NCBI GenBank assembly: GCA_026003335.1
Contig: BPHB01000004.1
Coordinates: forward strand, 2,316 to 66,315
Direction: 5' to 3'
DNA length: 64,000 bases
From: Chitinophagales bacterium
GTDB taxonomy: Bacteria; Bacteroidota; Bacteroidia; Chitinophagales; CAIOSU01
Below, in pieces: positions 1-19,032 of the stretch. Position 1 is the first letter of the stretch. Every line of letters starts with the position of its first letter. The notes under the pieces are model-generated. The model had not been told where the DNA came from and did not search any database. It saw nothing but the letters and a program-made list of their open reading frames with translations. The position numbers were made by a program, and so were the translations under genes.

Positions 1-68
1 TTATTTTCTACCCCAAGCATTAGCTCTGATTTCTGTTTTTCGTTAAGCTTACTCAATAATTCTTCCAT
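1..68 (-). CDS. 5' end of a probable further 26-aa-repeat family protein (runs off the window)
   Basis: ATG at 68 follows the T/A junction motif. It reads MEELLSKLNEKQKSELMLGVEN, which resembles the N-termini of the neighbouring repeat proteins (e.g. FNERQLEQIRLGLEK). Confidence 0.6.
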   Translation of the reverse strand, partial: MEELLSKLNEKQKSELMLGVEN

Positions 69-108
69 AGCCTCTTTTTTTAAAAAAAGAGGGGCTATAA
101 AGTCCCTC

Positions 109-660: not shown

Positions 661-695
661 AGTTTTTTAAAAAAAGAGAGGCTAAGCCTCCCTTT

Positions 696-1244: not shown

Positions 1245-1297
1245 AATCCTTATGCCATTTTTCAAAAAAAAGAGGGGGAGTACCCCTCCCCCCTTTT

Positions 1298-1987: not shown

Positions 1988-2031
1988 AGTTTATTAAAAA
2001 AAGTGTGGGGAGGTATTCCCTCCCACACACT

Positions 2032-2316
2032 TTAATCTTCGAGGCAGTCCTCTTCGTCCTCCTCTTCCTCTCCTTCATTGGCTGCTTCAACTAACTCATC
2101 CCAACTGATTTCATCTATACAAATGAAATCGGCAATAAAGTAATATCTTGAAGTGATCTCATCACATATACTTTCAAGATATTCTTTAAATTCATAAACA
2201 CCGTCAGTGGTAAAATCAAATCCCAATTCTGTAATCCACATGCTTGCAGCCCAAGTGGCATGATTCTTCCATCCGTTGTACCCTTTCATAGTTCTTTTTG
2301 TTTTTTGGTTTGACAT
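2032..2316 (-). CDS. small acidic phage protein with YNGWxNxxTW motif
   Basis: GYNGWKNHATW motif, seen in phage early proteins; acidic tail; ATG adjacent to the junction motif. Confidence 0.75.
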   Translation of the reverse strand: MSNQKTKRTMKGYNGWKNHATWAASMWITELGFDFTTDGVYEFKEYLESICDEITSRYYFIADFICIDEISWDELVEAANEGEEEEDEEDCLED

Positions 2317-2351
2317 TTTTTAAAAAAAACAGGCAGTGGTTGCCTGTTTTT

Positions 2352-2840
2352 TTAAATGAGGCCTTCGTATTCCTCATACATCAAAGCCCAAGTAAGAGCA
2401 TCTTCAAATGTAAGCCCGCTTCTACCTGTATGTTCTTCTGCAATGTCTATCAACACTTTACATATCTCATCCAAGTAGTTCTCCTGAACTTCAATTACAC
2501 GCTTTTGTACGGTATCAATAAATGCCGATATAGATTCATCAATAGAATGCGACATAAGCTGACAATCTATTAATTCCTCTCCCCCGCATTCGAGAAGACG
2601 CTCCCTGTTTATATCACAAAAGACAGCTAAATACCCCTCAAAGTCATAATAACATTCTATTGAGGTAGCTGCCTCTACACATTTTTTACAAGGTTTTTTA
2701 CCTATCTTTTTGATTTCTTTTCTTAGTTTTTCGGCCTCGGCTATCAACCTTGGGTGGATGACATTGTCCCAATAGTTCAAGTCTGTTGCCGCGTAATAAT
2801 CGCGCAACAACTCTTTGATTCTGATCAGGGTGTTGTTCAT
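2352..2840 (-). CDS. hypothetical protein (CxxC; C-terminal EYEGLI)
   Basis: 162-aa ORF bounded by junction motifs; KPCKKC resembles VPCEKC in 6230..6739. Confidence 0.8.
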   Translation of the reverse strand: MNNTLIRIKELLRDYYAATDLNYWDNVIHPRLIAEAEKLRKEIKKIGKKPCKKCVEAATSIECYYDFEGYLAVFCDINRERLLECGGEELIDCQLMSHSIDESISAFIDTVQKRVIEVQENYLDEICKVLIDIAEEHTGRSGLTFEDALTWALMYEEYEGLI

Positions 2841-2877
2841 AGTTTTTTTAAAAAAAACAGGGAATACATGTCCCTGT

Positions 2878-3195
2878 CTACAGTAATCCTTTAAATTCTA
2901 TCAATAGCTTAAGTATATCTTTCATTTTTTTTGCGCTAAACTCCGGCTTGGCATACACACTTACGTCTACGCCCTCTTCTAACCCATACCGTATTTGTGC
3001 CATCTGTTTCCAGTTAAACTCAGGCTTGGCATACCAACTCACATCCAACCCTTCTTTTAGTCCAAACCTGATCTCTTCCATCTGTTCCCACCTAAACTCC
3101 GGCTTAGCGTACCAGCTCACGTCTAATCCTTCTTCCAGTCCAAACTGGATTTGTTGCAACTGATTTTCACCGAAAAGTTCTTTGTTTATCTCCAT
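2878..3195 (-). CDS. 26-aa tandem-repeat protein (3 repeats)
   Basis: 105 aa, same repeat unit. Confidence 0.9.
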   Translation of the reverse strand: MEINKELFGENQLQQIQFGLEEGLDVSWYAKPEFRWEQMEEIRFGLKEGLDVSWYAKPEFNWKQMAQIRYGLEEGVDVSVYAKPEFSAKKMKDILKLLIEFKGLL

Positions 3196-3234
3196 AGCTT
3201 TTTTAAAAAAAACAGAGGGGATGTGCCCTCTGCT

Positions 3235-3786
3235 TTAAATCAATCCTTTAAGTTCTATCAATAGCTTAAGTATATCTTTCATTTTTTTTGCGCTAAACTC
3301 CGGCTTGGCATACCAGCTCACGTCTACGCCCTCTTCTAACCCAATCCGGATTTGTTCCATCTGTCCCCAGTCAAACTCAGGCTTGGCATAGACACTTACG
3401 TCTACGCCCTCTTCCAATCCATACCGGATCTTCCTCATCTGCTGATAATCAAACTCCGGATTGGCATACCAGCTCACATCTAATCCTTCTTCAAGCCCAA
3501 ATCTTATTTGCTCCATCTGATGATTGTCAAACTCCGGCTTGGCATACCAACTCACATCCAACCCTTTTTCAAGACCAAGTCTTATTTCCCTCATCTGTCC
3601 CCAGCCAAACTCCGGATTGGCATAGACACTCACGTCCACGCCTTTCCTAAGACCAAACCTGATCTCTCGCATCTGTTCCCAATTGAAATCAGGCTTGGCA
3701 TACCAGCTTACGTCTAATCCTTCTCCCAGTCCAAGCTGGATTTGTAGTAATTGCTCTCTACCGAAAAGTTTTTCGTTTATCTCCAT
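3235..3786 (-). CDS. 26-aa tandem-repeat protein (6 repeats)
   Basis: 183 aa = 105 + 3x26. Confidence 0.9.
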   Translation of the reverse strand: MEINEKLFGREQLLQIQLGLGEGLDVSWYAKPDFNWEQMREIRFGLRKGVDVSVYANPEFGWGQMREIRLGLEKGLDVSWYAKPEFDNHQMEQIRFGLEEGLDVSWYANPEFDYQQMRKIRYGLEEGVDVSVYAKPEFDWGQMEQIRIGLEEGVDVSWYAKPEFSAKKMKDILKLLIELKGLI

Positions 3787-3823
3787 AGCTTTTTTTAAAA
3801 AAACAGGGGATACATGTCCCTGT

Positions 3824-4609
3824 TTATAGTAATCCTTTAAATTCCATTAATGCTTCTCTTTTCTTTTTCATTTCAAGTGAGCCAAACTCCGGCTTAGCAT
3901 AGACACTCACATCCAACCCCTCTTCCAGTCCAAACCTGATTTGTTCCATCTGTCCCCAGTCAAACTCAGGCTTGGCATAGACACTCACATCTAATCCTTC
4001 TTCAAGCCCAAATCTTATTTGCTCCATCTGATGATTGTCAAACTCCGGCTTGGCGTACCAACTCACATCCAACCCCTCTTTTAGCCCAAACCTGATTTGT
4101 TCCATCTGTCCCCAGTCAAACTCAGGCTTGGCATAGACACTCACATCTAATCCTTCTTCAAGTCCAAATCTTATTTGCTCCATCTGATAATTGTTAAACT
4201 CCGGCTTGGCGTACCAACTCACATCCAACCCTGCCTTCAACCCAAGCCTGAGTTGTACCATCTGCCATTCATTGAATTCCGGCTTGGCGTACCAACTCAC
4301 ATCCACGCCCTCTTTCAAACCATACCTGATCTCTCGCATCTGCTTTGGCATGAATTCCGGCTTGGCATACACACTTACGTCTACGCCCTCTTCTAACCCA
4401 ATCCGGATTTGTTCCATCATCCCCCAAGCAAATTCCGGCTTGGCATAAATGCTTACGTCCAATCCTGCTTCCAATCCAAGACGAATCTCCTTCATCTTTT
4501 CCCAAATAAACTTAGGATCGGTATACCAACTCACATCCAACCCTTTTTCAAGGCCAAGACGTATCTGCTCTAATTGCCGTTCGTTAAAAATGTCTTTGTT
4601 TATCTCCAT
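3824..4609 (-). CDS. 26-aa tandem-repeat protein (9 repeats)
   Basis: 261 aa = 105 + 6x26. Confidence 0.9.
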   Translation of the reverse strand: MEINKDIFNERQLEQIRLGLEKGLDVSWYTDPKFIWEKMKEIRLGLEAGLDVSIYAKPEFAWGMMEQIRIGLEEGVDVSVYAKPEFMPKQMREIRYGLKEGVDVSWYAKPEFNEWQMVQLRLGLKAGLDVSWYAKPEFNNYQMEQIRFGLEEGLDVSVYAKPEFDWGQMEQIRFGLKEGLDVSWYAKPEFDNHQMEQIRFGLEEGLDVSVYAKPEFDWGQMEQIRFGLEEGLDVSVYAKPEFGSLEMKKKREALMEFKGLL

Positions 4610-4649
4610 AGCTTTTTTTTAAAAAAACAGAGGGGATGTGCCCTCTGCT

Positions 4650-5591
4650 TTAAAGCAATCCTTTAAGTTCTATCAATAGCTTAAGTATATCTTCCATCTT
4701 TTTTGCGCTAAACTCCGGCTTGGCATACACACTTACGTCTACGCCCTCTTCTAACCCAATCCGGATTTGTTCCATCTGTCCCCAATTGAAATCAGGCTTA
4801 GCATAGACACTCACATCCACGCCCGCTTCCAATCCAAACCGGATTTCTCTCATACTGCCCCAACTAAACTCTTTTTTGGCATACCAAGTAATGTCTAACC
4901 CCTTTTCCAGCCCATAACGTATCTCCCGCATTTGTTCCCAGCTAAACTCCGGTTTGAAATATATACTTACATCCAATCCTTTTTCCAACCCCAGTCGGAC
5001 TTCTTCCATCACCTTCCAAAAATACACTTTGTTAGCATACACACTAACATCTACCCTTGCTTTAAGACCATGCCGTATTTGAAACATCTGAGTGCTGTTA
5101 AACTCCGGCTTGGCATACCGGCTCACGTCCAAGCTTTCTTCCAGCCCAAGTCTTATTTCCTTCATTTGCCATTCATCGAATTCCGGCTTGGCATAAATGC
5201 TCACATCCAGGTCTTTTCCAAGACCAAGTCTTATTTCCATCATCTGTCCCCAGTTAAACTCCGGCTTGGCATACACACTTACGTCTACGCCCTCTTCTAA
5301 CCCAATCCGGATTTGCTCCATCTGTCCCCAATTGAAATCAGGCTTGGCATACCAACTCACATCCAACCCTTTCTCAAAACCAAGTCTTATTTCCCTCATC
5401 TGTCCCCAGCCAAACTCCGGCTTAGCATAGACACTCACGTCCAATCCCTCTTCCAGTCCAAGACGGATCTCCTCCATCTGCTGATAATCAAACTCCGGCT
5501 TGGCATACCAGCTTACGTCCAATCCTTCTTCCAGTCCAAACTGGATTTGTTGCAACTGATTTTCACCGAAAAGTTCTTTGTTTATCTCCAT
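4650..5591 (-). CDS. 26-aa tandem-repeat protein (11 repeats)
   Basis: Start at ATG 5591 (MEINKELFGENQ, identical to the 2878..3195 N-terminus); 313 aa = 105 + 8x26. Confidence 0.9.
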   Translation of the reverse strand: MEINKELFGENQLQQIQFGLEEGLDVSWYAKPEFDYQQMEEIRLGLEEGLDVSVYAKPEFGWGQMREIRLGFEKGLDVSWYAKPDFNWGQMEQIRIGLEEGVDVSVYAKPEFNWGQMMEIRLGLGKDLDVSIYAKPEFDEWQMKEIRLGLEESLDVSRYAKPEFNSTQMFQIRHGLKARVDVSVYANKVYFWKVMEEVRLGLEKGLDVSIYFKPEFSWEQMREIRYGLEKGLDITWYAKKEFSWGSMREIRFGLEAGVDVSVYAKPDFNWGQMEQIRIGLEEGVDVSVYAKPEFSAKKMEDILKLLIELKGLL

Positions 5592-5627
5592 AGCTTTCAC
5601 AGAAAAAAGAGAGACAAGACAGTCTCT

Positions 5628-6188
5628 CTAACCTAATAGGTCAAAATACAGAGATAACTCTTCTGCATAATTGAGTACCACCTGCACAAACCCCTCCTGC
5701 CCGGTCAACTCTTTGTATGCACGAGTCATCACCGGAATGATTTGTGACTTAAAATCACTTGCCGCAAAAACAAGCCTATTCCCAAACTTATTTTTGATAT
5801 CGGCAAGATATCTTTCATTTTTAAGTGATTTCAACGAAGGGTCATTGTAATAGGGCAAAGACCCCTCGATACACCCTACGCAGAAATCATGCTTGATGCA
5901 TGATTTCATCAATGAAAGCTTGCTTTTAATAAGCGATACATCCAGCTGCCCGTTATCAGTAATGATACTGATATGAAAGGCGTCTAATATTGCCTCAGGG
6001 CAACCGCTGCGTAGATCATCTTCATCTACTCTTATACTGTGTTTTTTCTTTACCTCCTCTATGACCTTTGAAAAGGCCTTATCAAGGAGTACCTTGTGCG
6101 CTTCCCCTCTACGTTCTACATCGCTCGCGAGGAGATAGTATTTGTAGAGGGTGTAAATTTCTTTTTTTAGAATGAAGTTATCTTTCAT
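5628..6188 (-). CDS. hypothetical protein
   Basis: 186-aa ORF bounded by junction motifs. Confidence 0.8.
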   Translation of the reverse strand: MKDNFILKKEIYTLYKYYLLASDVERRGEAHKVLLDKAFSKVIEEVKKKHSIRVDEDDLRSGCPEAILDAFHISIITDNGQLDVSLIKSKLSLMKSCIKHDFCVGCIEGSLPYYNDPSLKSLKNERYLADIKNKFGNRLVFAASDFKSQIIPVMTRAYKELTGQEGFVQVVLNYAEELSLYFDLLG

Positions 6189-6229
6189 AATCTATTTCTT
6201 AAAAAAACAGGGGCTTGACATAACCCCGG

Positions 6230-6739
6230 CTATATCAAGCCCCTGTATTCCCAAATGGAATAAGCCCATTCGAGAATTTCGTCTTTTTTCCAAGGGCCCT
6301 TCTTCTTTAAGCCCTTATAATACCCTAATAAGAGGTCGTAAGCCTCTTTCTTATATTCATCCATGATAGGGTCTACCATTTCATAGGCGTCACTACGAAC
6401 ACAACGCATAATCTGATCTACGTCTTTATCATGGATGTAGTTATAAGGGCTTCTATTATGACTGCAATTCCCCTTGGCACAGTTATCCACACGCTCCCAC
6501 CCGAAAGAGTAAAGCGTATAATGGAAGCCTATGCGTACGGGGTCCCATTCTGCGGTGATCTTCACCGCAGATAAAATACACTTCTCACAAGGAACTTTGC
6601 CTCTTTTAAAGGCAATGTCCCTTACTTTCTCATGCACATCGCGGAAAAGACCTCTTATATTCATGGTCTCCGCATAACATGCCGCCGCATAGTATTTAAT
6701 ATATGCGGCAATAACTTCTTTATAAATGTCTAATTCCAT
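6230..6739 (-). CDS. hypothetical protein (CxxC; C-terminal EYRGLI)
   Basis: 169-aa ORF; KYYAAA...VPCEKC layout resembles DYYAAT...KPCKKC in 2352..2840. Confidence 0.8.
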   Translation of the reverse strand: MELDIYKEVIAAYIKYYAAACYAETMNIRGLFRDVHEKVRDIAFKRGKVPCEKCILSAVKITAEWDPVRIGFHYTLYSFGWERVDNCAKGNCSHNRSPYNYIHDKDVDQIMRCVRSDAYEMVDPIMDEYKKEAYDLLLGYYKGLKKKGPWKKDEILEWAYSIWEYRGLI

Positions 6740-6777
6740 AGTTTTTTTAAAAAAAAGGGGTTACCCCCCTTTGATGG

Positions 6778-8010
6778 TCATTCTACATGAACAACCATCT
6801 TCGCTTTCTTTACCCCCGGCTTTGCACCCGTATACATCACAATCCCTACCGTCTTGCCGGGAAATTCTAATACATCATCTGAGTCGAGATAGCCATCAGT
6901 CAATACAATCACGACGTCATGCTTCTTGGCTATCTGCTTCAGATGGAGGCCGAGCTGAGTACCGGACCCCCTGGGAATAGAGGCTTTACGGATGTCTTTT
7001 ATTTTCTCGTACCCCACAATCTCGGTGTCTACATAGTACATATGTGTAGTGACACCTTTGATCAGCACCTGGCCAAGCAGGCGTTTGATCTCATCCTCAC
7101 TCATAGAGAGAGAGACATCCAGCAGCACAGCCATCTCACGGGAGATACGCTGCACACCAGGCAGCTCGCGCATATTGCGCCGGTTGGGACGCCCCCATGT
7201 GTCTATGGAGTCACGGCTGCCTAAGGCATGCTTTAGCAATGCCTTCACCCGATTGGCCCATCTGCCGGGCTTAATCGATGTGATAGACAGCGTGTCCCAT
7301 ACACCAGAGCCGGTCCCGGCAGCCTGAGCTACCTGACTTTTCATCCTTTCGGCTACCGCCGCGGCTTCGGCTGCCGTCGCGTCATCCATAGGCATATGAG
7401 TGTCCGTAGACCCCTCAGTTCCTTGAAGACGCTTAAGCATACCCTTGGCAGTCTCTCTTCCTCCATTTGAAGAAGAAGAGCCACCACGGGAGGCCGAACC
7501 TTTGTTGTCCTCCTCTTCATTCCCCTCACCATCGCCATCCCCTTCCTGCTGCATAGAGTCCTGCTCCTTACGAAGAAACTCATACAGTTCTTCAAAGAGC
7601 CACTCGCCTTCATAGTCAGAAGGCATACGGCATCCTCCTTCAATGAATTGAAGGTCATTAGGGTAGCGCTCAAGTAAGGAGTCATTGATGATGCAGTCCT
7701 GTGCAATATTCGACAGGAACGCATCTCTGTGTCCTACTCTGAGCAAATGAATATTGCTCAAATGCATCGCTTCATGCAAAAGCAAGAAACGAAGCTGAGC
7801 ATCATTTAACTCAGAGGATCTTGGTCCTATATGGAGGACAAATCCCTTCCTCCGTTTGTCGTAACTCACCGCACCATAAGGGACACTCTCATCGTACCTC
7901 TTATCACAAAGGGACAATAAGAGCCCCAGCGCACGGTAGTCTTCGCTCCGCGGTGACGACACTATCCCAAGAATAGTATCGTACACGCGGTTTAAAATGT
8001 CTAATTCCAT
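6778..8010 (-). CDS. metallopeptidase-like (HExxH) + VWA domain protein (DUF2201-like)
   Basis: LLHEAMH, NIAQDCIIND, MIDAS-like LLDVSLS, and LTDG. Start at ATG 8010 (MELDIL) after the junction motif. Confidence 0.8.
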   Translation of the reverse strand: MELDILNRVYDTILGIVSSPRSEDYRALGLLLSLCDKRYDESVPYGAVSYDKRRKGFVLHIGPRSSELNDAQLRFLLLHEAMHLSNIHLLRVGHRDAFLSNIAQDCIINDSLLERYPNDLQFIEGGCRMPSDYEGEWLFEELYEFLRKEQDSMQQEGDGDGEGNEEEDNKGSASRGGSSSSNGGRETAKGMLKRLQGTEGSTDTHMPMDDATAAEAAAVAERMKSQVAQAAGTGSGVWDTLSITSIKPGRWANRVKALLKHALGSRDSIDTWGRPNRRNMRELPGVQRISREMAVLLDVSLSMSEDEIKRLLGQVLIKGVTTHMYYVDTEIVGYEKIKDIRKASIPRGSGTQLGLHLKQIAKKHDVVIVLTDGYLDSDDVLEFPGKTVGIVMYTGAKPGVKKAKMVVHVE

Positions 8011-8066
8011 ACTTTTTTCAAAAAAAAGGCATAGGGACATAGTCCCCGCCTTTCAAACCTGCCATT

Positions 8067-9116
8067 TTAAATGGAGGAGATAATTTTCTTCAGTGTGTTT
8101 CTAAACCGATTATCCCCACCATTAAATTCACGGCTTGCCTGCCCCAAGACCTCCTTAGCCGGTTGTGCCATATTCTTGGCCTTGGTTAAGATGCCGCCGA
8201 CCAAGTCAATAGGCATCTTCTCGCAGGCACGGACGAGAAGTATGGCCTCTTTCTTGGTCACCTTCTCTCTACCCTCCATCCAATCCATGACACCTGTCGC
8301 CACATTAGCGGCGTTGGTGTCATTAATCATATCGATTAGCTTGGGGTCTTTCAGTATATTGACCCAAGTAATCTTACTCATCTCTTCAACCCAGGTGCCA
8401 AATGCAACGGCAGCCCGGGTACCAATTATACCCTTCAATTCCTCAATGCCCAACTCTATATGTTGAGACATTGAGATTACGAATTCCCAGCTTCTGGGGC
8501 TGGGAGCCCCAAATTCATCCCTCATTTCGGGCGCATTGAAATATTTGCGCTCCGACTTCAAAAACGTAACGACCATATTATCGCCGTACTTTTTAATTAT
8601 CCACTGAGACCATGCATCAAAGTCAAGGTCCCAGCGAATTGTCCAGAGACGTTCCCTCAAAGCCGAAGGCATCTCCTCCACAACAGACTCTGTGCCATCC
8701 TCTTCACCCAAGTTGCCGGTTGCGGCAATCTTGGCTTTTCCTGATATTTGGCGACCCTGCCACTCACGCTCATTAAAGAGCTGGTAGAAGGTCACCATCG
8801 TTTTCGGATGAGCCGCATTGAGCTCATCGAAAATGAACAGCGTGGGTTCTTTGCACTCCAGCATCTCCGTTATGATGGGAGAAGCCATGTATTCAAATGA
8901 CTTCTCCCCTAATTTCGGGATGCCTACAAAGTCCTCAGGTGGAGCCTGTACCGGCACCACACGGACGTTCCATCCCTTTGCGTGAGCTATCTCACGAAGG
9001 ATGGCACTTTTACCTGTACCCGGTGCTCCTACAAGGAAAGGCACCGGAACATAGCAATTGCCTTGTACTTCAAGCAAGGCGCTGATCTGGTTTCTTAAGT
9101 TTGTTTTCATGCTCAT
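8067..9116 (-). CDS. MoxR-like AAA+ ATPase
   Basis: Walker A GAPGTGKS, Walker B FIFDELN, ATGN, ALRER and PSPRSW. Adjacent to a VWA gene. Start at ATG 9116 after the junction motif. Confidence 0.85.
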   Translation of the reverse strand: MSMKTNLRNQISALLEVQGNCYVPVPFLVGAPGTGKSAILREIAHAKGWNVRVVPVQAPPEDFVGIPKLGEKSFEYMASPIITEMLECKEPTLFIFDELNAAHPKTMVTFYQLFNEREWQGRQISGKAKIAATGNLGEEDGTESVVEEMPSALRERLWTIRWDLDFDAWSQWIIKKYGDNMVVTFLKSERKYFNAPEMRDEFGAPSPRSWEFVISMSQHIELGIEELKGIIGTRAAVAFGTWVEEMSKITWVNILKDPKLIDMINDTNAANVATGVMDWMEGREKVTKKEAILLVRACEKMPIDLVGGILTKAKNMAQPAKEVLGQASREFNGGDNRFRNTLKKIISSI

Positions 9117-9157
9117 ATTTGTTTTTTCAAAAAAAACCCGCCATAAGGCGGGGCGCA

Positions 9158-9310
9158 TCACCCTCTTGCCATTTGGATGATGCGGGTCATTATATGGATC
9201 GGGGCATATACGATGGCAAACCCGATCCACCCCATGACTATATATCGCCATGCCATACAGGCAATGGCGATAATTAATATAATTAATATAGATAAAATCA
9301 TCTTTCTCAT
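9158..9310 (-). CDS. 50-aa hydrophobic membrane peptide (not in the ORF track)
   Basis: Read by hand: MRKMILSILIILIIAIACMAWRYIVMGWIGFAIVYAPIHIMTRIIQMARG*. It fills the space exactly between two junction motifs. Confidence 0.7.
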   Translation of the reverse strand: MRKMILSILIILIIAIACMAWRYIVMGWIGFAIVYAPIHIMTRIIQMARG

Positions 9311-9587
9311 AGTTTATCTAAAAAAAGTTGCCTATGCAACTATCTTGCCCCTTACATAAGTACCGGTCAATCTAATCTATATATTTATCTCATCATCGCG
9401 GACCGGCAAGAATATTTTGGGCTCCCACAAAAAAAGGCTATCAATCACGATAGCCGTGCCGGTATTCACTGCTTGATTATACGGCGTGCGTGCGCCCATG
9501 TTGCCATGAACGTCCCGGCTCACGCCTCTTTACCCGCCAGCCGCAATGCAATGTCAAGCTCATCACAATGCGACCGAGCAACGTGCT

Positions 9588-9887
9588 TTACCGGGCTACC
9601 ACGTTCACCTGATAGGTGACAGGTGAGCCGGCGATTTCACGCACGCGCTCAACGGGGAGGTCTTTCCCTCTGTCCTCGGGCGTCAATGCCAAGGGCACCT
9701 CAGTGACCCGTTCGGCAAGTGCCGCGAGGTGGAGAGGCAACACCCCGATGACGTGACGACCGCGTACATCGTCAGCACTTGCGTGCGACAGTACGGGCGT
9801 GTCAGGGGTAATCAGCCCAATCTCCAAGAGGTAGTCAACCAGACCCTGATGGCGGGTGACGACGATAGTGTCAGTCATCCCATCCAT
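9588..9887 (-). CDS. csx16: Csx16-like protein (putative cyclic oligoadenylate ring nuclease)
   Basis: VVTRHQGLVDYL...DVRGRHVIGVLPLHLAA...PEDRGKDL matches the recalled Csx16 pattern (TRHxGA...VIGxLPxxLAA...RGxEL). Confidence 0.7.
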   Translation of the reverse strand: MDGMTDTIVVTRHQGLVDYLLEIGLITPDTPVLSHASADDVRGRHVIGVLPLHLAALAERVTEVPLALTPEDRGKDLPVERVREIAGSPVTYQVNVVAR

Positions 9888-10133
9888 TTTATCTAAGGTC
9901 CTAACTACCGGTGCGTTGAAATAGGAGACGCACCCCTCCCACCGAAATCATCTTTTTAAAAAAATATCTCTAATTCATTTTCGTTGTCCCACCAATAGTT
10001 GGCTATGCAACTACCCGGTGACAGCGATGCCCCCTTGCATGCTCTGTGGTTCTCCACGCCCACCATCACCACCGCTTGTCACCCCTGTCCATCACCACGC
10101 CGGTGGTTATGGATAGGTAGGCGGGGAAAAAAA

Positions 10134-10547
10134 GCGCCGGTGACAGGGGAGTATCGCGAATCACCCTGTCCCGGCGACCGGCGTGTGCACCCGCCGGCAC
10201 CAGGTCCTTGCCTACCTGGCGTTTTTTTACATCCACGTCCTTCCCGGGTACAGCAGTGGGCAAGGTCTCAACGGTTGAACCGTCACTGCTACTGCCGGGT
10301 GCAGCCATCCCGTACACATGCGTGCAGGGATGGTACCCCCATGAGTGCTCAGACTTACGCGGTGGCCAGCCGACCAATGCTTCTTGCGGCGAAGACATTG
10401 GCTCCTTCTCACCGGGTTTTACGTAACCGGTCCCATGGGCGACCGGTTACAACCATCGTTATGCCGATGGTACAGCTTCCCCATCCCGGGCGAAGCAACC
10501 CCATGCCCCATGTCGCTGTACGTGCGTCAGCCGACAGGGGCAGCCTG
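10134..10547 (-). ncRNA. putative structured ncRNA, copy B
   Basis: No credible ORF; bounded by junction motifs; shares conserved blocks and covarying stems with 10667..10985. Strand inferred from the junction orientation. Confidence 0.55.
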
Positions 10548-10561
10548 TTTTTTAAAAAAAA

Positions 10562-10653
10562 GGCCGGCGCCTATGCCGGGGGCCTGGGCGACAAGGAAAG
10601 GAGTCGCTTGCGCCCACCGGCACACATCCTTCTTTTAATGGTAGTTGTGCCGG
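10562..10653 (-). ncRNA. putative ~90-nt small RNA between two junction motifs
   Basis: Stems ccggcaca/tgtgccgg and tgggcg/cgccca plus a terminal hairpin; no ORF. Confidence 0.35.
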
Positions 10654-10666
10654 TTTTTTAAAAAAA

Positions 10667-10985
10667 GCGGGGATGCCGCTCGCCCAACGGCAGAGCCCCG
10701 CACACCAGTCCATCCTCTCCCCAATGCGATGGTAGGACGAAATCCCATCCATGTGGGGTACATGGGCACCTCCCGGGCGGTGCCGCACTCCCATGAGCGC
10801 TCGGTTTTACGGGTGGCCAGCCCAACCTATGCAATGCATAGGGAACCTTCTTCCACGGTTTTACGCAGCTCATCCCATGGGCGACTCGCTGCAACCCGTT
10901 CCTACGGACGGGGTCTACCTTGCGGGCATTTGGCAGACACGTGCGTGCCCCTGCCAAACCCGGCCTGCCCCAATAAGGGGCATTC
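10667..10985 (-). ncRNA. putative structured ncRNA, copy A
   Basis: Homologous to copy B with compensatory stem changes; bounded by junction motifs. Confidence 0.55.
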
Positions 10986-11022
10986 TTTTTTGAAAAAAAA
11001 CCGGGCATAGCCCGGGCCTGGG

Positions 11023-11331
11023 TCAGTCCTTGTTGGACTTGACCCAGTCTATGATTTTCTCGCCTATGCGCTCCCAGACGCAGGTGGCATAGGCGTCAAG
11101 GTAGAGTTCCCAAGCTTCCTTGGGAGCTCCATTTAACCAACCCGGGACTTCAAGTCCCGGCAATTCAAACACCCCCTTGTCGAAGGGGGTGGGGGTTGCA
11201 TATATAGATTTCCCGTTTGTATACATGGACGGGGAATCTATATTGACCCACCGAACGAGGGTCATAAACCCTCGTTTGGGGTCTCTATCGAAATCTTCGA
11301 TAGAGACCCCAACGGCGTTTATATACATCAT
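11023..11331 (-). CDS. hypothetical protein, first gene of the leftward array
   Basis: ATG 11331 (MMYINAVG) lies directly after a junction motif. Confidence 0.7.
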   Translation of the reverse strand: MMYINAVGVSIEDFDRDPKRGFMTLVRWVNIDSPSMYTNGKSIYATPTPFDKGVFELPGLEVPGWLNGAPKEAWELYLDAYATCVWERIGEKIIDWVKSNKD

Positions 11332-11565
11332 ATTTTTTTTCAAAAAAAACCCCCGTGCATAGGGGTTTTTGAAAAAAAACCGGGCGTAGCCCGGTGGTGC
11401 GAGGTGTGGGTCAGAAGTCTATTCGAGACTTCTGACCTCACACCTCTTAGAGGTGCGAACTCTCACCTCAAAGTTACTGCTGAGCTGCGAAGCTACCTGC
11501 TGACGCAAGTAGCTGTGCCGCTGCGCTCACGCCGTCACGGACGGCGGCGTGAGCGCGGGGTCTCT

Positions 11566-11742
11566 CCGAAGTGGGGACGTCCGTAGTGGACGCCCCCGTT
11601 TCGGGCGCCCCCGAAGTGGGGACGTCCGTAGTGGACGCCCCCGTTTCGGGCGCCCCCGAATAGTCGGGGGCACCCTTCGGGTGCCCCCGAATAGTCGGGG
11701 GCCCCCGTTTCGGGTGCCCCCGAAGTGGGGCACCCGTAGTGG
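11566..11742. repeat. GC-rich palindromic tandem array (about 15-bp period; exact 45-bp duplication)
   Basis: 11566-11610 is identical to 11611-11655 (ccgaagtggggacgt ccgtagtggacgccc ccgtttcgggcgccc), followed by ccgaatagtcggggg x2 and variants. Confidence 0.9.
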
Positions 11743-11830
11743 ATTACGTTTCCGTTTCGTACTCATACTGCTTTTAGGGGGGGGTTTTGTAACAGTCCCT
11801 TGAAGCGCTGCGTATAAAAAATAAAAAAAT

Positions 11831-11860
11831 AAAAAAGGGAGGGGTATTGGATCCCCTCCC
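11831..11860 (-). terminator. intrinsic terminator downstream of 11884..12396
   Basis: gggagggg/cccctccc stem followed by a T-tract on the - strand. Confidence 0.7.
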
Positions 11861-11883
11861 GGCGACACGCGATGGTGACTGTT

Positions 11884-12396
11884 TTATGATGAGAGGCGTG
11901 CTTCTGCGATCACGTATTCATCGACCGTGTTGGTAAGGGTGATGGCTGGTTTTTGGTATTCTTCAAGCAGGGTATTGAGGAGGAAGTCAGGGACGTTCTT
12001 TTTGCAGGCGTAGTGGGCGATGCCGTACAGTTTGTTGAGGAGGTCGTAGGGTGGAGCTTCGTAGTCGCCGTATTCGTCTGTTGACTGCCGGATGACAGAC
12101 AGCAGCTTATTTAGTGCGGCATTGAATGCCCGTGCGTTATATCCTTTTTTCAGTACGATACGGATGAAGGTAATGATGGAAGTGCGTGCCTGTGATTTCA
12201 TGACGTCTTTGATGTCTTCTTTCATCCCGTCAATGACCTTGCTTATTGCTATGGCATCCTCTATGTTATGGTCTTTTATTTCGGGCACGTAGAAGTTAAT
12301 ATGATCAAACAGTTTCGGACGTTTAGCCCCTGTCTTGGCGGCTATGTAGTCGTTATACAGCCCGAACATAAGATATGGCGTCCTTGCATTGATCAT
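11884..12396 (-). CDS. hypothetical protein
   Basis: 170-aa ORF with an A-rich upstream region and a terminator downstream. Confidence 0.75.
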   Translation of the reverse strand: MINARTPYLMFGLYNDYIAAKTGAKRPKLFDHINFYVPEIKDHNIEDAIAISKVIDGMKEDIKDVMKSQARTSIITFIRIVLKKGYNARAFNAALNKLLSVIRQSTDEYGDYEAPPYDLLNKLYGIAHYACKKNVPDFLLNTLLEEYQKPAITLTNTVDEYVIAEARLSS

Positions 12397-12421
12397 AGTT
12401 TTGGGTTTTATATGTTATGGA

Positions 12422-12820
12422 TTACATCGGTTCAGTTTGCGTTCCCGTGGTTGCTTGTGGGTCTTGGGCTATCTCCGGGCTTGACACCTCTACTTCTCTC
12501 AGTCCTATCCGTTTGAACAGGAAATTAAACATTCCTTCATTGATGAGTTTGTTGAGTTCAAGGTTTACTCTTGGTGACCGGAAATATACCGGCTGTCCAT
12601 TAAAGACGAAATAGTTGTTATACAGAGACATGTATTGGGTAAGGAAATTCAAGAGCGTTGACAGTTCTTGTTGCGTGGAAGCTTTAGGTATTTCTGGCGG
12701 TGTCTCATTCCCCAGTGCTTTTTCGATGTCATAGGTGATTGAATACTGAGAGTTTGGGTAGTCATAGATTACTCTCACTTCTGACTTGTCTTCTGTCAAA
12801 ATTATCTGATTCATAGTCAT
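12422..12820 (-). CDS. hypothetical protein
   Basis: 132-aa ORF, divergent from 12883. Confidence 0.75.
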   Translation of the reverse strand: MTMNQIILTEDKSEVRVIYDYPNSQYSITYDIEKALGNETPPEIPKASTQQELSTLLNFLTQYMSLYNNYFVFNGQPVYFRSPRVNLELNKLINEGMFNFLFKRIGLREVEVSSPEIAQDPQATTGTQTEPM

Positions 12821-12882
12821 TTAAGTTTTGGTTTAATGCATGTAAAATACTAAATTTAGCGTATGAAATCAAGGATTTTACT

Positions 12883-14442
12883 ATGAAAAATATATTTTCA
12901 GGCATTACCAGAGATACGCTGGAGAAGTTATCCCCTTCCCTTGTAGTAATGGATAACAGAGTGGTTGGCGACACTCACTATATGTGGTTACGTCCCAAGA
13001 TAGCCGATTTGGAGGAGTTTATTTTAAGCAAGGTAGAGAATGGAGACAGCGGGTTAAAGGCTGTTTCAAGAGAGTATTTATTAGCCGGCTATGAGGATGT
13101 GATGGACTCATACGGATATCTTAACGACTTGATCTATGCTGATATTCAGAATGTACACGGTCTTGATCGTCTCATGGTAGCCATCTCGGCCAATTATGCA
13201 AACACGCTTGAAATACCATTTGAATTATCTTTTTTATTCAGGGCCAAGAGAGCTTTAATATATATAGACCACACTTTATTTAAGAAGAACTACCTTCATA
13301 ACGTAGGCATATACAGTGGTCTTGGTCGCGAGTGTGTCATATACCCTTATTTGAACATAAACAATTTGTTTGGAGGCAAGCTTGAAGAGCTGACCATCAT
13401 GAGTGATGGTCCGGTAGCCGTAAGCACCGGACGTCATGTCTATGTACCACGCCTGCTTGCAAATGGCACTACTTATGGAGGCACTGACTCTTATTATGCT
13501 AACGTATTAACTGTCAAGGGGTGCAATACACAGACGCCCGTATTGCTTCCTGATGCGATAGGGTATAGCCCTAACGCATTCCCTTACAACTATGCCCATT
13601 TAGGTGTATTAAGCAAGGAGGTCCCTTACAGCCCATTGGATGCGGATGTGCCTTATGAGATAAGATTAAGCCCTGCCGGTTCAAACTACGACTATGCCGC
13701 ATTGAACACCAATCTTTATTACCATTATTGGGGTATGGATTCAGCTTATTTGACCCCTTTGATAGAGAAGGATAAATACTTGATGGGTTATTATTACGGC
13801 ATGCCCAACGGGGAACGCTCTGCCACGAACACCATCCTTGATGACGGCTTACATGTCTGCTTACCAAACCGTGCGGTAACCAATGCGACCCCATTCCAAA
13901 CCAATCTCTTAGTACCGGTCTATGACCTGTCAAGAGAAGACGGCATCCCCGGTGCTTGTGTGTATATAGCTATCGAATTCAAGCGCAGGGGCAAGTATTC
14001 AAACCTGTATTCTAATGGCACTTACAGGAACCCTGTCTGGGCGTCCGGTATAATACACACGCTTTTACCCGATGACGGAGACCCATATTCATTTAAGTTA
14101 GCCCCTTACAACAGCTTTGCCGCCGGATCTTACGATGTGCAAACGCGTATTAACCATGGACCCGTTGACGCCCCTTATACCGTCAAGGCAGACAGCAAGT
14201 ATGATGAACGTGGTGAATATGTGTGGATAAAGATGAAGCATGGCGATACGTCTGTGTTATATGACGTATCCATCCCTTTATCAAGTTGGTCCGGGCGAAA
14301 TGACTATCGTGCCGGAGGCATCAGTTATGTGTTGCATGAGGTGATCATCACGGCAGAAGAGCTTGACAAGGAGCAGGAGAATAAGCTAATCAGCTCAGTA
14401 AATAAATTATGGGGGACGGCATACCCATTGCGTGATGAATAA
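12883..14442 (+). CDS. hypothetical protein (Tyr/Gly/Asn-rich, possibly virion-associated)
   Basis: 519-aa ORF followed by a terminator. Confidence 0.75.
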   Translation: MKNIFSGITRDTLEKLSPSLVVMDNRVVGDTHYMWLRPKIADLEEFILSKVENGDSGLKAVSREYLLAGYEDVMDSYGYLNDLIYADIQNVHGLDRLMVAISANYANTLEIPFELSFLFRAKRALIYIDHTLFKKNYLHNVGIYSGLGRECVIYPYLNINNLFGGKLEELTIMSDGPVAVSTGRHVYVPRLLANGTTYGGTDSYYANVLTVKGCNTQTPVLLPDAIGYSPNAFPYNYAHLGVLSKEVPYSPLDADVPYEIRLSPAGSNYDYAALNTNLYYHYWGMDSAYLTPLIEKDKYLMGYYYGMPNGERSATNTILDDGLHVCLPNRAVTNATPFQTNLLVPVYDLSREDGIPGACVYIAIEFKRRGKYSNLYSNGTYRNPVWASGIIHTLLPDDGDPYSFKLAPYNSFAAGSYDVQTRINHGPVDAPYTVKADSKYDERGEYVWIKMKHGDTSVLYDVSIPLSSWSGRNDYRAGGISYVLHEVIITAEELDKEQENKLISSVNKLWGTAYPLRDE

Positions 14443-14458
14443 TAAGCTTCATTGCAGG

Positions 14459-14492
14459 CGGGGGTGTAGTGATGCTGCACCCCTGTTTTTTT
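14459..14492 (+). terminator. intrinsic terminator
   Basis: ggggtgtag/ctgcacccc stem followed by T7. Confidence 0.75.
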
Positions 14493-14562
14493 ATCTGTTA
14501 AGACTTGTAATTTTGGTAAATTTACTGTATATTTATAAAAGTAAAACTAAAATTGCAATAAT

Positions 14563-15333
14563 ATGAAAAAGGTTTGTTTGTTGGTATGGTTATTCGTTTG
14601 CCCGCTGGTTTCTTTTAGTCAGACCGATGGTGATTTCAGCCTTGAAGGGCTCATAATCCGGTGTTTGGATTCATTGGATAAGGACACTGTTTTGTTGTTC
14701 TTTGAAGAAGACCATTATCCGGAATTGCCTTTTGATGAATCCTTTTACGACTATATAAATGACTGTTACCTTTATTATTCAAGGGTTGTCCCTATTGTTT
14801 ATGTGTTTGCGACAAGGGATGGTAGCGGTAATGTATTGATCTTTGACTATGGGTATTTGTTGCCTACTGAGTTTTACTTCCTGACGATGGAAGGTGTCTT
14901 GGATATTCATTGCTTAATCAGTCATGACGGACACAGTGTGTATTGGATATACCGGACTGAGGTGGTTGACCAGGGCAAACTACCGCCACAACTGAGGGTT
15001 GATTCAAAAGGGTCATTTTACTTACAGTACGGAGACAGGAAGGTATCATTAAACCGGACGTCGGATATGGAGTCCGGTTATGCAAGTTCTGCTTTGGTGT
15101 GGAATTACCCCTCGCTTTTCCTGTGGCGCAAGTTTGACATACGCAAGGCTGAGGACAGGGACTGTCTTCACTTCCTTCTGAACCTTCCGGTAGGATATAA
15201 GATTTACAATGTAGATGATGCAGGAGTGGAGACGGAGGTTTTCAAAAGGAAGTATACTCTTGACAGGTTTCAGGAGTATATGTGCCGCCTATACTTCTTT
15301 TGGGAAAACAATTACTCAGCCTTGTCTAAATAA
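14563..15333 (+). CDS. putative exported protein with signal peptide
   Basis: MKKVCLLVWLFVCPLVSFS-Q, a Bacteroidota-style signal peptide with Gln at +1. Confidence 0.7.
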   Translation: MKKVCLLVWLFVCPLVSFSQTDGDFSLEGLIIRCLDSLDKDTVLLFFEEDHYPELPFDESFYDYINDCYLYYSRVVPIVYVFATRDGSGNVLIFDYGYLLPTEFYFLTMEGVLDIHCLISHDGHSVYWIYRTEVVDQGKLPPQLRVDSKGSFYLQYGDRKVSLNRTSDMESGYASSALVWNYPSLFLWRKFDIRKAEDRDCLHFLLNLPVGYKIYNVDDAGVETEVFKRKYTLDRFQEYMCRLYFFWENNYSALSK

Positions 15334-15479
15334 GACTTGTAATATTTCTTTGATTTTAGTAAAATATTGAACTCTGTCTAATTGTTTATTTTCTTTCCTG
15401 AAAGAGCACCGGGAGCTTCTCCTTGTGCTCTTTGTTTTCCTTGGAGACGTCTTGTCCGTATCACCCTCTCAGAAGCCCG

Positions 15480-16148
15480 GAAACGGGCTCAGGAGCGAAG
15501 ATCTGTTTTCGCAAGTATAATCTATCATCTCAACATGAGATCGTCGTTTATACGCCGTTTAAAAGGCTTGCAGCTGATTCCCCCTGTTTTTTTTGCTTTT
15601 GCCTTTAGTTTCTTTTAGCTACTCAAGCGTCTATAGCAACCCGGTGTTGCAACTACGCTACAGTACCCCGTTACTGTAGCACGCTATAGTAACACGTAGT
15701 TGTATATATTATATATTATATATATTATACTATAGCGTGTACTATAGCACGTAATTGTACCGGGGTACTATAGCGACACGTGGGATGCAGGCTTATATGC
15801 CTCTAAAGCATATAAGCCTGCATCCCTTACTGTAGCGGGGTATTGTATATTTAGAGACTTAAGATTATTTCAATAGAGAAAGACTTAGATAGCTATTATT
15901 AGCTATAAATCAGAGAATTATACTTGAATCCTTCATGGATACTTGAGATTTATTCTCTTGGATGCTTTAGTTTCAAAGAGAAGCTAAAGCCGGTTGGTTT
16001 TGCTTGGTTTTAGCTTTCATGATTTGAGCTTTTTGGTTAAGACCTTGTCAGAGCAACAGAAACGGGCTCAGGAGCGAAGATCTATTTTCGCAAGTATAAT
16101 CTATCATCTCAACATGAGATCGTCGTTTATACGCCGTTTAAAAGGCTT
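15480..16148. repeat. two 90-bp direct repeats flanking a palindrome/iteron-rich non-coding core (candidate origin or terminus)
   Basis: 15480-15569 and 16059-16148 differ at one base. Perfect 19-bp inverted repeat at 15782-15826, about 7 (ta)ct(a/g)tagc-like units, and a TA-only tract at about 15703-15729. Confidence 0.85.
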
Positions 16149-16189
16149 TCTTATGTGAGTATGTCATGCCTAAAAAAAAGTGCCTTTTT

Positions 16190-16222
16190 TATTGAAGCGA
16201 AGTATGGTTTTTGTTACTTTTG
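16190..16222 (+). promoter_or_regulatory. Bacteroidota-type promoter (TTG...TAnnTTTG)
   Basis: attg-N20-tacttttg upstream of the structural operon. Similar cttg-N20-tatattt elements lie before 14563 and 16522. Confidence 0.45.
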
Positions 16223-16244
16223 TATTGAAAACTGATTTAATGTT

Positions 16245-16472
16245 ATGCGTTTTAATGTCAGATTTAATCTCAAAGCTCTTTTATCAAAATCCGGGGTTAA
16301 GTACACTGCCTATGGATTAATCTTTACTTCACTGTTTACTTACCTGCTTGTCATTGGCAAGATTGACTCGGTTGCTTACACTTCTTTGATTACCCTCTTC
16401 TTGCCTTCGTTGTTTATGGAGGATTCAGATGATTCAGAGAACAAAAATGACTCTTCTGTTGAAGAAGCTTGA
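16245..16472 (+). CDS. small two-TM membrane protein (holin-like)
   Basis: Two hydrophobic segments and a charged C-terminal tail. Confidence 0.55.
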   Translation: MRFNVRFNLKALLSKSGVKYTAYGLIFTSLFTYLLVIGKIDSVAYTSLITLFLPSLFMEDSDDSENKNDSSVEEA

Positions 16473-16521
16473 CAGGTAATGAAGAATAATTTATATTTAC
16501 GAAGGACAAAAAAATAATGTT

Positions 16522-17556
16522 ATGTCAGGGAAAAGAGAAATGTCGGTAAATATTGACAAGAGCATGTTGGAGGATTCAGTGGAAGACATGGATGATATTG
16601 TCATCGACGGTCTTGATGTGGAAGATGACTTTCAAGGGACGGAGGATGATGTAGAGGAGGATGGTTATTACCTTGATGAAGAGGAAGAAAGAGAAGTCTT
16701 AACAGATGAAGAGGGGGAATCATTGGATAAAGAAGAGGGGGAAGGTACCCCCCTCTCTTCTTTGTTTATAGAGTATTTGAAAGATAATGGTGTTGAAATA
16801 CCTGAAGGTGTTTCAACATATGAAGATTTGGTTTATCATCTGCTGAACGAGCCTAAAGAAGAAGAGGTAGATGATGATGTGAAAATCATCAAAGAGATAG
16901 GACTTGACAATTATCTGCGTGAACATCTGTTCGGACAGAAAGAATTGACGGAGAAGATAGAGCAAATCAATTCTTTTGGGGAAGCCGAATTGTTGTATGA
17001 GTACTTCAGAACGCTTGGATATGATGAAGACAAGATAAACGACAAAGTCAACAGAATCTTGTCAAGAAGCAAGGATTATGTGGAGTCTTATGTGTCTGAC
17101 GTAAAAGAAGAGCTTGTTTCAAGAGCAAAAAAAGAAGTAGAATCCACTGTCCGTGACCGTCTTGAAAAAATACTTTCGGAAACGAAAGAGCAAAGCAAAA
17201 CTGTTGAAGAAGCATATGCTTCTTTTGTACAGGAGGTGGATAAGGTGTTACCTTCCTTTAACCGTTTCCTTGACTTTGAAGTAGATGATTCAAGAAAAAA
17301 AGAATTGAGACGTTTCGTGACGGAAATGAACGAACAAGGGTATACTCATTTTGAATCATTCGTTCAGCAACCTGAAAACCTTGTGAAGATGGCTTATATG
17401 GCTTTGTATTTTGATGATATCATCAATTCGGTGTACAAAAAAGGTTATATTGAAGCACAAAGGAAACTTTTGAAAGACACTACCGTACCTCAACAAGGGA
17501 AAGGTAATGGGAATAGAGGTAACTCATTGAACCTTAACGTAATGAACGAATATTAA
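16522..17556 (+). CDS. acidic coiled-coil protein upstream of the capsid gene (putative scaffold)
   Basis: Very acidic N-terminus and helical body; position matches the crAss-like capsid module. Confidence 0.6.
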   Translation: MSGKREMSVNIDKSMLEDSVEDMDDIVIDGLDVEDDFQGTEDDVEEDGYYLDEEEEREVLTDEEGESLDKEEGEGTPLSSLFIEYLKDNGVEIPEGVSTYEDLVYHLLNEPKEEEVDDDVKIIKEIGLDNYLREHLFGQKELTEKIEQINSFGEAELLYEYFRTLGYDEDKINDKVNRILSRSKDYVESYVSDVKEELVSRAKKEVESTVRDRLEKILSETKEQSKTVEEAYASFVQEVDKVLPSFNRFLDFEVDDSRKKELRRFVTEMNEQGYTHFESFVQQPENLVKMAYMALYFDDIINSVYKKGYIEAQRKLLKDTTVPQQGKGNGNRGNSLNLNVMNEY

Positions 17557-17586
17557 TTATATTTGTAACGAAAACTTGTATATATT

Positions 17587-19014
17587 ATGAGAATAGCCAA
17601 TCAGGTAATGGACCTTAACGGGGATAAGACCTTCACCAAGTCGGCGCTTAGCCGCTTCCTGAAAGAGTCTACTCCGTTACAGAACAAAACATTCCGTTTG
17701 TTCCCTCAGTTCTCACTTCAGTATCTCTTACAGTCGATGGGGCGTATCCATGAAATCAAATATGACGGTACCCCTTCATTGACTACCAACAACTCTTATC
17801 TTGAGTGGGAACTTGAAACGAATCATTACGACTTAATCCCCATTACCGGTGACTTTACCGGTAATGAGACTAATGTCGGGGCTAACGTACAGCCTTTCAC
17901 CATCTGCTTTGCCCGCAAGTATTATTATCCTTTTGACCGTATCCGTCTTGAAAACGGCCAGATTTTAAGTGTGCTTGAGCCTGAGCCCGTACAAGTAGCC
18001 GCAAACAAATGGCGCTATACGGTTCGTCTTCAGACTAATGATCCTAACGAAGTAGTGGACGCACGCTATCTGGTTCCCGGTCGTATGACCAGCTTCATGT
18101 ATTCGGACTTCCCTGAATTGTCCGTTCGCGGTTATATGCGTATGAGCGGCAAAAAAGAAAGACACCGTGAATACTTGAAAGTAGAGCGTGTGTCTTTCAG
18201 CATTTCAGGGCATGCTGCAAGCACTTACTATGTGGTTGAAGACGAAAACTCAAAAGGCAAACAATTCTATTTCCTGAACAAAGCGGAGAAAGAAGCGCTT
18301 GAGGAGCTGGCGTACAAGAAAGAGATGTATCTGATCTACGGTAAGTCAAGCGTGGATGAGACAGGCAAGTGTTATCAACAGGATGCACGCGGCTTTGACA
18401 TCATATCCGGTAATGGTATCATCAACCAGATTGACCCCTCTTGCAAGGTGAACTACACCAAGTTGACCAAGCGCCTGTTGCAGGATATCATCACTGAGAT
18501 GATATTAAAGTCCGGGCGTGACGCGCAGGATGGTGTTGAGATCATATTGATGACAGGCATCCACGGCTATAATCTGTTCCAGCGTCTGATGGAAGACAGC
18601 ATGAAGCCGGGCACGGTGGTATATGAAAAACGCAACGGCGACAAGATTACGCTTGGCGGCAACTTCACCGAGTATATTTTCGGCAAAGGGCGTGTGATCC
18701 TTGCCCATAACTCGGTATTTGATGCTCCAAGCCTTGCTTCCGATGTGGACGAGAACGGTCATCGCCTGGAGTCGTACCGTATGCTCTTTATTGACAACTC
18801 CAAGTATGACGGGGAATACAATATTGCTACCTTTACCCGTAAAGGCCGTGCGTTGGTATATGGCGAGCTGTTGGGTCTTGGTGGCCGTGACGGTACCACC
18901 TCCGGTAAGATAGCGACCAGCGTGGACGGCAGTTCGTACCACTGGCTGAGTGAGATCGGAGTACGTATGCTGAACCCCTATTCTTCGTATATGCTTGAAA
19001 AAGTGATTGTTTGA
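17587..19014 (+). CDS. major capsid protein (crAss-like)
   Basis: 475 aa. LEWEL, FARKYY, WRYTVRL, FPELSVRG, SISGHA, ISGNGIINQI, MTGIHGYNLF, HNSVFD, LESYRM and ATSVDG match the recalled crAss-like capsid pattern. Confidence 0.85.
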   Translation: MRIANQVMDLNGDKTFTKSALSRFLKESTPLQNKTFRLFPQFSLQYLLQSMGRIHEIKYDGTPSLTTNNSYLEWELETNHYDLIPITGDFTGNETNVGANVQPFTICFARKYYYPFDRIRLENGQILSVLEPEPVQVAANKWRYTVRLQTNDPNEVVDARYLVPGRMTSFMYSDFPELSVRGYMRMSGKKERHREYLKVERVSFSISGHAASTYYVVEDENSKGKQFYFLNKAEKEALEELAYKKEMYLIYGKSSVDETGKCYQQDARGFDIISGNGIINQIDPSCKVNYTKLTKRLLQDIITEMILKSGRDAQDGVEIILMTGIHGYNLFQRLMEDSMKPGTVVYEKRNGDKITLGGNFTEYIFGKGRVILAHNSVFDAPSLASDVDENGHRLESYRMLFIDNSKYDGEYNIATFTRKGRALVYGELLGLGGRDGTTSGKIATSVDGSSYHWLSEIGVRMLNPYSSYMLEKVIV

Positions 19015-19032
19015 TTTTAAAAGATAGTATAT

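Follow-up and report, generated by a model that had tools for sequence, protein, structure and literature searches.

A contig of a crAss-like phage was found to carry a stand-alone gene of the Csx16 family, csx16, and our analyses suggest that its product is a cA4 ring nuclease that serves the phage as an anti-CRISPR against type III systems. This functional reading draws on the sequence of the protein, on its predicted structure, and on analogy with characterized enzymes, and we give it a probability of about 0.6. The product is a member of the Pfam Csx16 family, and it is neither the CRISPR-associated equivalog nor AcrIII-1. The window, by which we mean the whole 64,000-nucleotide stretch of DNA that was analysed, belongs to contig C4 (86,145 bp) within a 3.9-Mb assembly (the bin). 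An initial annotation of the window had proposed that csx16 encodes a phage-borne ring nuclease, and its family assignment, phage context, and anti-type-III reading hold as our best inference.

Comparison of the csx16 product with profiles of known families revealed a clear family membership with one exception. The initial annotation described a 99-aa gene with a TRHxG / VIGxLPxxLAA / RGxxL pattern, and this was borne out, as the 99-codon frame is open and contains TRHQG, VIGVLPLHLAA, and RGKDL. It also suggested a search with Csx16 profiles, the outcome of which depended on the profile used. Pfam PF09652 (Csx16) matched the product at 64 bits (cut-off 25) over model positions 2–90 of 91, and the PADLOC Csx16 model matched it with an E-value of 1.2e-16, but TIGR02620, the profile of the CRISPR-associated Csx16 equivalog, gave 16.7 bits, which is below its cut-off of 46.35. 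A match to the product was not found among PHROGs. Sequence matches to DARPins in the PDB were rejected, because the resemblance is a short look-alike (G-x-x-P-L-H-L-A-A) and the model of the csx16 product shows an alpha/beta fold. The gene had also been called stand-alone, with neither cas genes nor an array nearby, and this holds across the contig: no array, Cas10, or RAMP was detected anywhere on C4, and the Cas10 and RAMP matches of the assembly sit on another contig, C3.

Six positions (H13, G48, L50, P51, R73, and L77) do not vary among 119 homologues of the phage protein; R12 is retained by 118 of these and H35 by 115. The positions R12, H13, H35, G48, L50, P51, and R73 are 100% conserved in 18 chromosomal or plasmid CRISPR-type copies and 98–100% conserved in the rows from mobile elements. 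The residues that putatively bind or cleave cyclic oligoadenylate (cOA), R12, H13, H35, R73, and D76 (E in most), are all kept in the phage protein, and its two closest relatives (89% and 80% identity) retain every key residue. Histidine, arginine, and acidic residues are the basis on which activity was predicted for Csx16 in the accessible text of PMC8284326, where a histidine is also proposed as the general acid of AcrIII-1. The phage branch has features of its own as well. Position 49 is V in 119/119 of its homologues and T/S in CRISPR-type Csx16, position 63 is E in 118/119 and H/N in CRISPR-type Csx16, and L16 and Y19 are further branch-wide differences.

An AlphaFold2 model of the product, built from the 119 homologues, had a pLDDT of 93.5. 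Its best fold match among 48,161 chains was AFV3-109/DUF1874 (Z 4.6, rmsd 2.8, 75 aligned), a weak match with a Z that can arise by chance, and the second was the Crn2 part of Marinitoga Csx1-Crn2 (Z 4.1), also weak. A likewise weak value (Z 4.8) has been published for cellular Csx16 against AFV3-109, and the resemblance of the Csx16 fold to DUF1874/Crn2 was found there too (PMC12409355, accessible text). With Foldseek, the model had no match at E<=0.001 in either the PDB or BFVD, and hhalign of the csx16 profile with SIRV1 gp29 was negative (prob 0.3). PF08960 (DUF1874) had no match anywhere in the assembly, in a search in which the control was recovered. The initial annotation regarded AcrIII-1 (DUF1874) as a different family, which stands at the level of sequence and profile, but the two should not be called wholly unrelated given that the best fold matches of the model are DUF1874 and Crn2. 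AcrIII-1/Crn2 proteins (e.g., SIRV1 gp29, AFV3-109) are similarly small and virus-borne, and the same job and His-dependent chemistry are presumed for phage Csx16 (based on the accessible text of PMC8284326).

Relatives of the phage gene were numerous in the sets searched here. A protein search gave 247 matches at E<=0.001 and, among the matches listed, 119 non-self proteins were 53–89% identical to the query. The survey of phage homologues that the initial annotation called for yielded 32 viral loci in IMG/VR (53 pattern matches) and 6 genome loci (31 pattern matches) in a scan with an alignment-derived pattern; in metagenomes the scan gave 165 stretches (217 pattern matches), of which 80 were kept. 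These scans select for the phage branch and cannot measure the CRISPR-type one, because the pattern includes GVLPL. A scan of viral contigs with a single sequence found nothing, but the alignment-based scan did recover loci. PHROG matches beside 128 chosen ORFs were to terminases, integrases, methyltransferases, RNA polymerases, and portal proteins of unrelated viruses, and the nearest Atlas clusters were 83–100% viral (of members with a record). Orphan Csx16 was also observed on plasmids of Deinococcus, Allomeiothermus, Paenibacillus, and archaea, and on conjugative plasmids, where its neighbours are small hypothetical genes. Two-domain forms of the protein were seen as well: in a 261-kb virus a stand-alone Csx16 is followed by a two-domain copy (L011:7968-9311), and a Thermaceae plasmid and a Deinococcota genome likewise carry two-domain Csx16 (L129:9007-9789; L154:979-1878).

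No RAMP or Cas10-palm match was found in the 32 viral Csx16 records (0/32), which were searched over the whole record and of which only 6 are at least 90% complete; a CRISPR-bearing control plasmid was recovered in this search. At MAG and metagenome loci, none of the 147 neighbour ORFs scanned (out of 297) had a cas-family NCBIfam match, and flanks of 1 kb were available on each side for only 36/90 distinct Csx16 loci. A tblastn search with the cas proteins of the bin against 117 loci gave no match either, but no weight is given to this result because the control cas1 was missed too. Chromosomal Csx16 had a cas-family neighbour within 1.5 kb in 13/18 loci, a figure that derives from 51/65 ORFs scanned, includes three matches that were below cut-off or partial, and describes Pseudomonadota loci in 401 genomes that were sampled around an alphaproteobacterial MAG.

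The initial annotation further held that the phage had captured an off-switch from its host, which our data do not support as a recent event. In a careful tree of 41 rows (18 CRISPR-type, all from the Pseudomonadota sample; 20 random mobile or metagenome sequences; the query; and two plasmid rows), the mobile group makes up one side of a branch with 100/100 support and a length of about 3 substitutions per site. A quick-mode tree of 120 rows separated the two groups as well, at lower support (SH-aLRT 81/87). Recent host capture is unlikely because of this separate mobile branch, the low identity (25–38%) of the query to 18 chromosomal, mostly CRISPR-linked Csx16, and the finding of Csx16 in 0/400 other genomes of the bin's phylum. 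Judged from these sequences, csx16 more likely represents a long-separated virus/plasmid branch. The idea that it is a recently captured host cas accessory gene, carried as a passenger, is largely refuted and can be given very little credence. Its GC3 is indeed raised (0.67 vs 0.45–0.58 in five neighbours), and an AU test that forced the query with the CRISPR group did not formally reject that grouping (delta lnL 28, p 0.056), but the gene is far closer to mobile or metagenome copies (60–89%) than to chromosomal ones and falls in the fully supported mobile branch. The claim that the gene has a higher GC content than its neighbours was confirmed (0.60 vs 0.48–0.50 in the two large downstream genes and 0.45 in contig C4). 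However, this is no sign of recent capture, because the adjoining non-coding block (10001-11000) is likewise about 0.60 and the Csx16 gene is GC-richer than its own locus in 29/32 viral relatives (median +0.06). High GC is a trait of the family and not a mark of recent capture.

Contig C4 was assigned to a crAss-like phage because its capsid, two tail-ring, and muzzle proteins exceed the Pfam cut-offs for Crassvirus proteins (PF23898, 150.8 bits; PF25702; PF24228; PF25731). It is probably a near-complete genome that was broken at repeats, as both of its ends lie in repeated genes. Within it, csx16 is the fourth ORF of a minus-strand array and the first past a 1.1-kb ORF-poor block (Table 1). 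The initial annotation placed the gene near the start of an early array; its position is as described, but "early" is a reading of gene order. A 20-nt element of the csx16 leader recurs at 9323-9342. Rfam searches over window 9000-13000 gave nothing near gathering scores, and sigma-70 sites were at chance level only. The gene is covered in place by related strains from three other studies at about 90% DNA identity, and in one of these three contigs about 80 bases at its 3' end are replaced. Among the sources of the phage DNA, the best and three others are hot-spring metagenomes and one is sediment.

Table 1. Features of the csx16 locus and of contig C4 (window coordinates unless marked C4).
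Feature	Position	Strand	Remarks
csx16	9588..9887	-	Csx16-family, mobile-element branch; 99 aa, or 96 aa from second ATG
csx16 leader	9888..10013	-	TTAGATAAA before ATG, common with next gene
ORF-poor GC-rich block (about 0.60)	9900..11020	.	Hairpin/T-run modules; GC-skew minimum; upstream of csx16
Terminator-like hairpin and T-run	9436..9455	-	Downstream of csx16; consensus match only
50-aa hydrophobic ORF	9158..9310	-	Next cassette of array; no PADLOC match
MoxR-like AAA ATPase (AAA_5, phrog_1297)	8067..9113	-	Profile match; context
DUF2201 metallopeptidase-VWA partner (phrog_1314)	6778..8040	-	Profile match; context
Crassvirus major capsid protein	17587..19014	+	Identifies phage, with ring and muzzle genes (21499-27560)
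~24-aa-repeat paralogues	109-660, 2878-3195, 3235-3786, 3824-4609, 4650-5600	-	Minus-strand array
~24-aa-repeat paralogues, further copies	C4 816-1379, 85133-85768, 85808-86134		

The array has several other features of note. Most of its genes (window 660-11400, minus strand) are arranged like cassettes, with a hairpin, a T-run, and an A-rich leader that ends at the ATG. Several hairpin/T-run modules in 9900-11400 are not followed by an ORF; these have a 51-nt repeat in common and may be non-coding RNAs. The pair of AAA ATPase and DUF2201/VWA genes (window 6778-9113) is found within about 2 kb after csx16 in another viral contig too (L001:10323-12663). At least eight paralogous genes of ~24-aa repeats occur among the other small genes of the array, and both ends of C4 break inside such genes. 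Their Atlas neighbours are unnamed phage and bacterial repeat proteins, with PF10950 on a minority of members, and they are possibly a diversifying family involved in host takeover. At window 11566-11743, near the GC-skew minimum, is a GC-rich (0.71) region of tandem and inverted repeats that is a candidate origin or genome-end structure.

The assembly offers a candidate target for the phage protein. Because SusC and GldK exceed their cut-offs, we take the co-binned genome to be Bacteroidota, and a Bacteroidota host for the phage is likely. Contig C3 has an intact-looking type III-A locus (L045:5482-17886) with cas6, cas10 (HD and GGDD motifs), csm2, csm3, a csm4-like ORF, csm5, a 482-aa CARF-HEPN protein, an SF1 helicase, cas1, a CRISPR-associated primase-polymerase (CAPP), cas2, and a 29-repeat array. 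Neither a stand-alone Csx16 nor DUF1874 was found at this locus, and the bin also carries two Cas9 loci. More widely, Cas10 palm was over its cut-off in 30/201 genomes of the bin's order and Csm1-type Cas10 was present in 2/41 close relatives of the bin genome (the bin's own being included in each figure). The CARF-HEPN effector of C3 is a divergent CARF-6H-HEPN protein with the invariant R-N-x4-H HEPN motif; it had no PDB sequence match, and its model has a pLDDT of 89.9. In whole-chain fold comparisons, cA6-activated Csm6 was best (Z 17.7 and 17.3), followed by the Can2 CARF (cA4; Z 14.5) and cA4 TtCsm6 (Z 13.5), and in Foldseek EiCsm6 and TtCsm6 tied. The model comparisons thus lean to cA6 as its signal, which would be a poor fit with a cA4-only enzyme.

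A specific link between C4 and this genome was not observed in any of the comparisons made. After 23 "spacers" of a C1 tandem repeat had been dropped, 172 spacers from four arrays were matched to C4, and the best had at least 6 mismatches, equal to the host-window controls; the type III array reaches the contig end, and spacers are therefore missing. The tetranucleotide distance of C4 to the chromosome was 0.268 vs <=0.117 for host windows, so that composition gives no link, and window 1-20000 had chance-level matches only against 40 relatives. A 1.6-kb piece of phage DNA (window 13701-15325; 98% identical) is also present at C21:1405-3027, inside a gene for a type I R-M-like methyltransferase; it was rejected as a host link because C21 does not join C1–C3. 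The sister contig C16 does not have this insert, which could be a chimera or real recombination. The bin does contain at least one spacer-targeted element, contig C7, a phage to which a type II spacer from the bin aligns with 2 mismatches.

In the accessible text of PMC12409355, cellular Csx16 is described as degrading cA4 completely, and not cA3 or cA6, in the presence of EDTA, and as modelling as a dimer. We propose that the csx16 product acts in a similar manner. From gene order, it would be made early in infection; it would then dimerise and, by analogy with AcrIII-1, bind cA4 across its two-fold axis with arginines on the phosphates. The ring would be opened by attack of a 2'-OH with a histidine as the acid, in a metal-independent reaction. 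The loss of cA4 would leave CARF effectors inactive, so that type III CRISPR would be silenced and the phage protected.

Several observations count against this reading. The product misses the TIGR02620 cut-off, V49 and E63 are branch-wide, the best structural Z is a weak 4.6, and the comparison with the gp29 profile was negative; in addition, the co-binned effector best matches a Csm6 activated by cA6, which cellular Csx16 does not cleave. An alternative that we regard as unlikely, but worth serious attention, is that the protein counters nucleotide signalling in another way than as a cA4 nuclease, as a cOA sponge or by acting on another signal (cA6; cA3, CBASS). The substitutions V49 and E63, the distance to CRISPR-type Csx16 (about 3 substitutions per site), and the leaning of the co-binned effector would all be consistent with this, as would the report that some Csx15 proteins are sponges (PMC13148439, accessible text). 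However, every His and Arg that is invariant in CRISPR-type copies is retained, the CARF domain of the effector on its own is a good match to Can2, which binds cA4 (Z 14.5, rmsd 2.3), the best PADLOC model for the effector is named Csx1, and the bin genome may not be the host.

It is also conceivable, and in our view distinctly improbable, that the product does work as an enzyme or binder but serves the infection otherwise than as an anti-CRISPR, for instance because it is expressed too late or because its target is a host protein. There is a precedent in SIRV2 gp37, as the accessible text of 10.1101/2023.01.10.523387 indicates that this viral ring nuclease does not necessarily act as an anti-CRISPR when the infection is natural and protects only if expressed from a plasmid, and many viral carriers of Csx16 have no known host with a type III system. 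This is countered by the location of csx16 close to the start of the minus-strand array of small genes, where it would precede the replication genes in a circularly permuted contig, and by the repeated retention of Csx16 in unrelated viruses and plasmids, which fits a role in neutralising defence. A more ambitious form of the ring-nuclease reading, which we consider a long shot, is that virus-borne Csx16 constitutes a third large family of ring-nuclease anti-CRISPRs in phages, much more frequent in uncultured viruses than in phages that have been cultured and retuned (V49, E63) to cA6, and that the phage disarms the co-binned Csm6-like type III-A system. If true, inhibitor and effector would be a matched pair, and this would be the first crAss-like ring-nuclease anti-CRISPR found in these searches.

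In comparison to cellular Csx16 (Cas_VVA1548; PF09652, TIGR02620), as described in the accessible text of PMC12409355, the phage protein is of the same size, matches the same Pfam/PADLOC profile, has the same weak fold match to AFV3-109, and shares the invariant motifs R-H, H, G-x-L-P, and R-G-x-E/D-L, but it is encoded alone, belongs to a separate and deep branch, and carries V49 and E63 where the cellular protein has T/S and H. That text also lists Csx16 in 68 type III loci and in 2/28,114 phage genomes, and phage-borne Csx16 is therefore already in print from two genomes. These two genomes (INPHARED/Millard) probably correspond to Bacillus phage Shbh1, the only phage recovered in our search of phage records (2/50,697 records, 37% identity). 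Shbh1 gp42 ("CRISPR related domain") is likewise a Csx16 on a phage without cas genes, but it is 180 aa long, does not have H35 and R73, and has its own long branch. AcrIII-2/Crn5 (SAVED fold) and phage or plasmid Crn4b are also mobile ring nucleases that act, or are proposed to act, against type III systems; they differ in having unrelated folds and, for Crn4, a broad cA3/cA4/cA6 specificity (PMC13148439 and PMC12830947, accessible text). A literature search that covered few subscription papers did not find a description of a Csx16 branch specific to viruses or of a ring nuclease from a crAss-like phage. If the protein is active, a widespread and apparently undescribed virus/plasmid branch of Csx16 would join AcrIII-1, AcrIII-2, and Crn4b, and a ring nuclease would be placed in a crAss-like phage whose assembly also contains a candidate for the cognate effector. 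It would be a new example of a known viral strategy and not a new idea, and the gain would be incremental unless its specificity differs, because the concept is established and phage Csx16 has already been published.

During these analyses we noted signs of other phages in the bin. A phage-like contig, C8, has a mini-array of 4 repeats (C8:19942-20199, L046) with a 37-nt repeat like that of the bin's type III-A system and no cas genes in its ORF list, making it a candidate virus-borne mini-array or RNA decoy. Contigs C14 and C18 contain giant ORFs that are 27–29% identical to the 6155-aa protein of the csx16-bearing phage, which suggests a second crAss-like phage in the bin.
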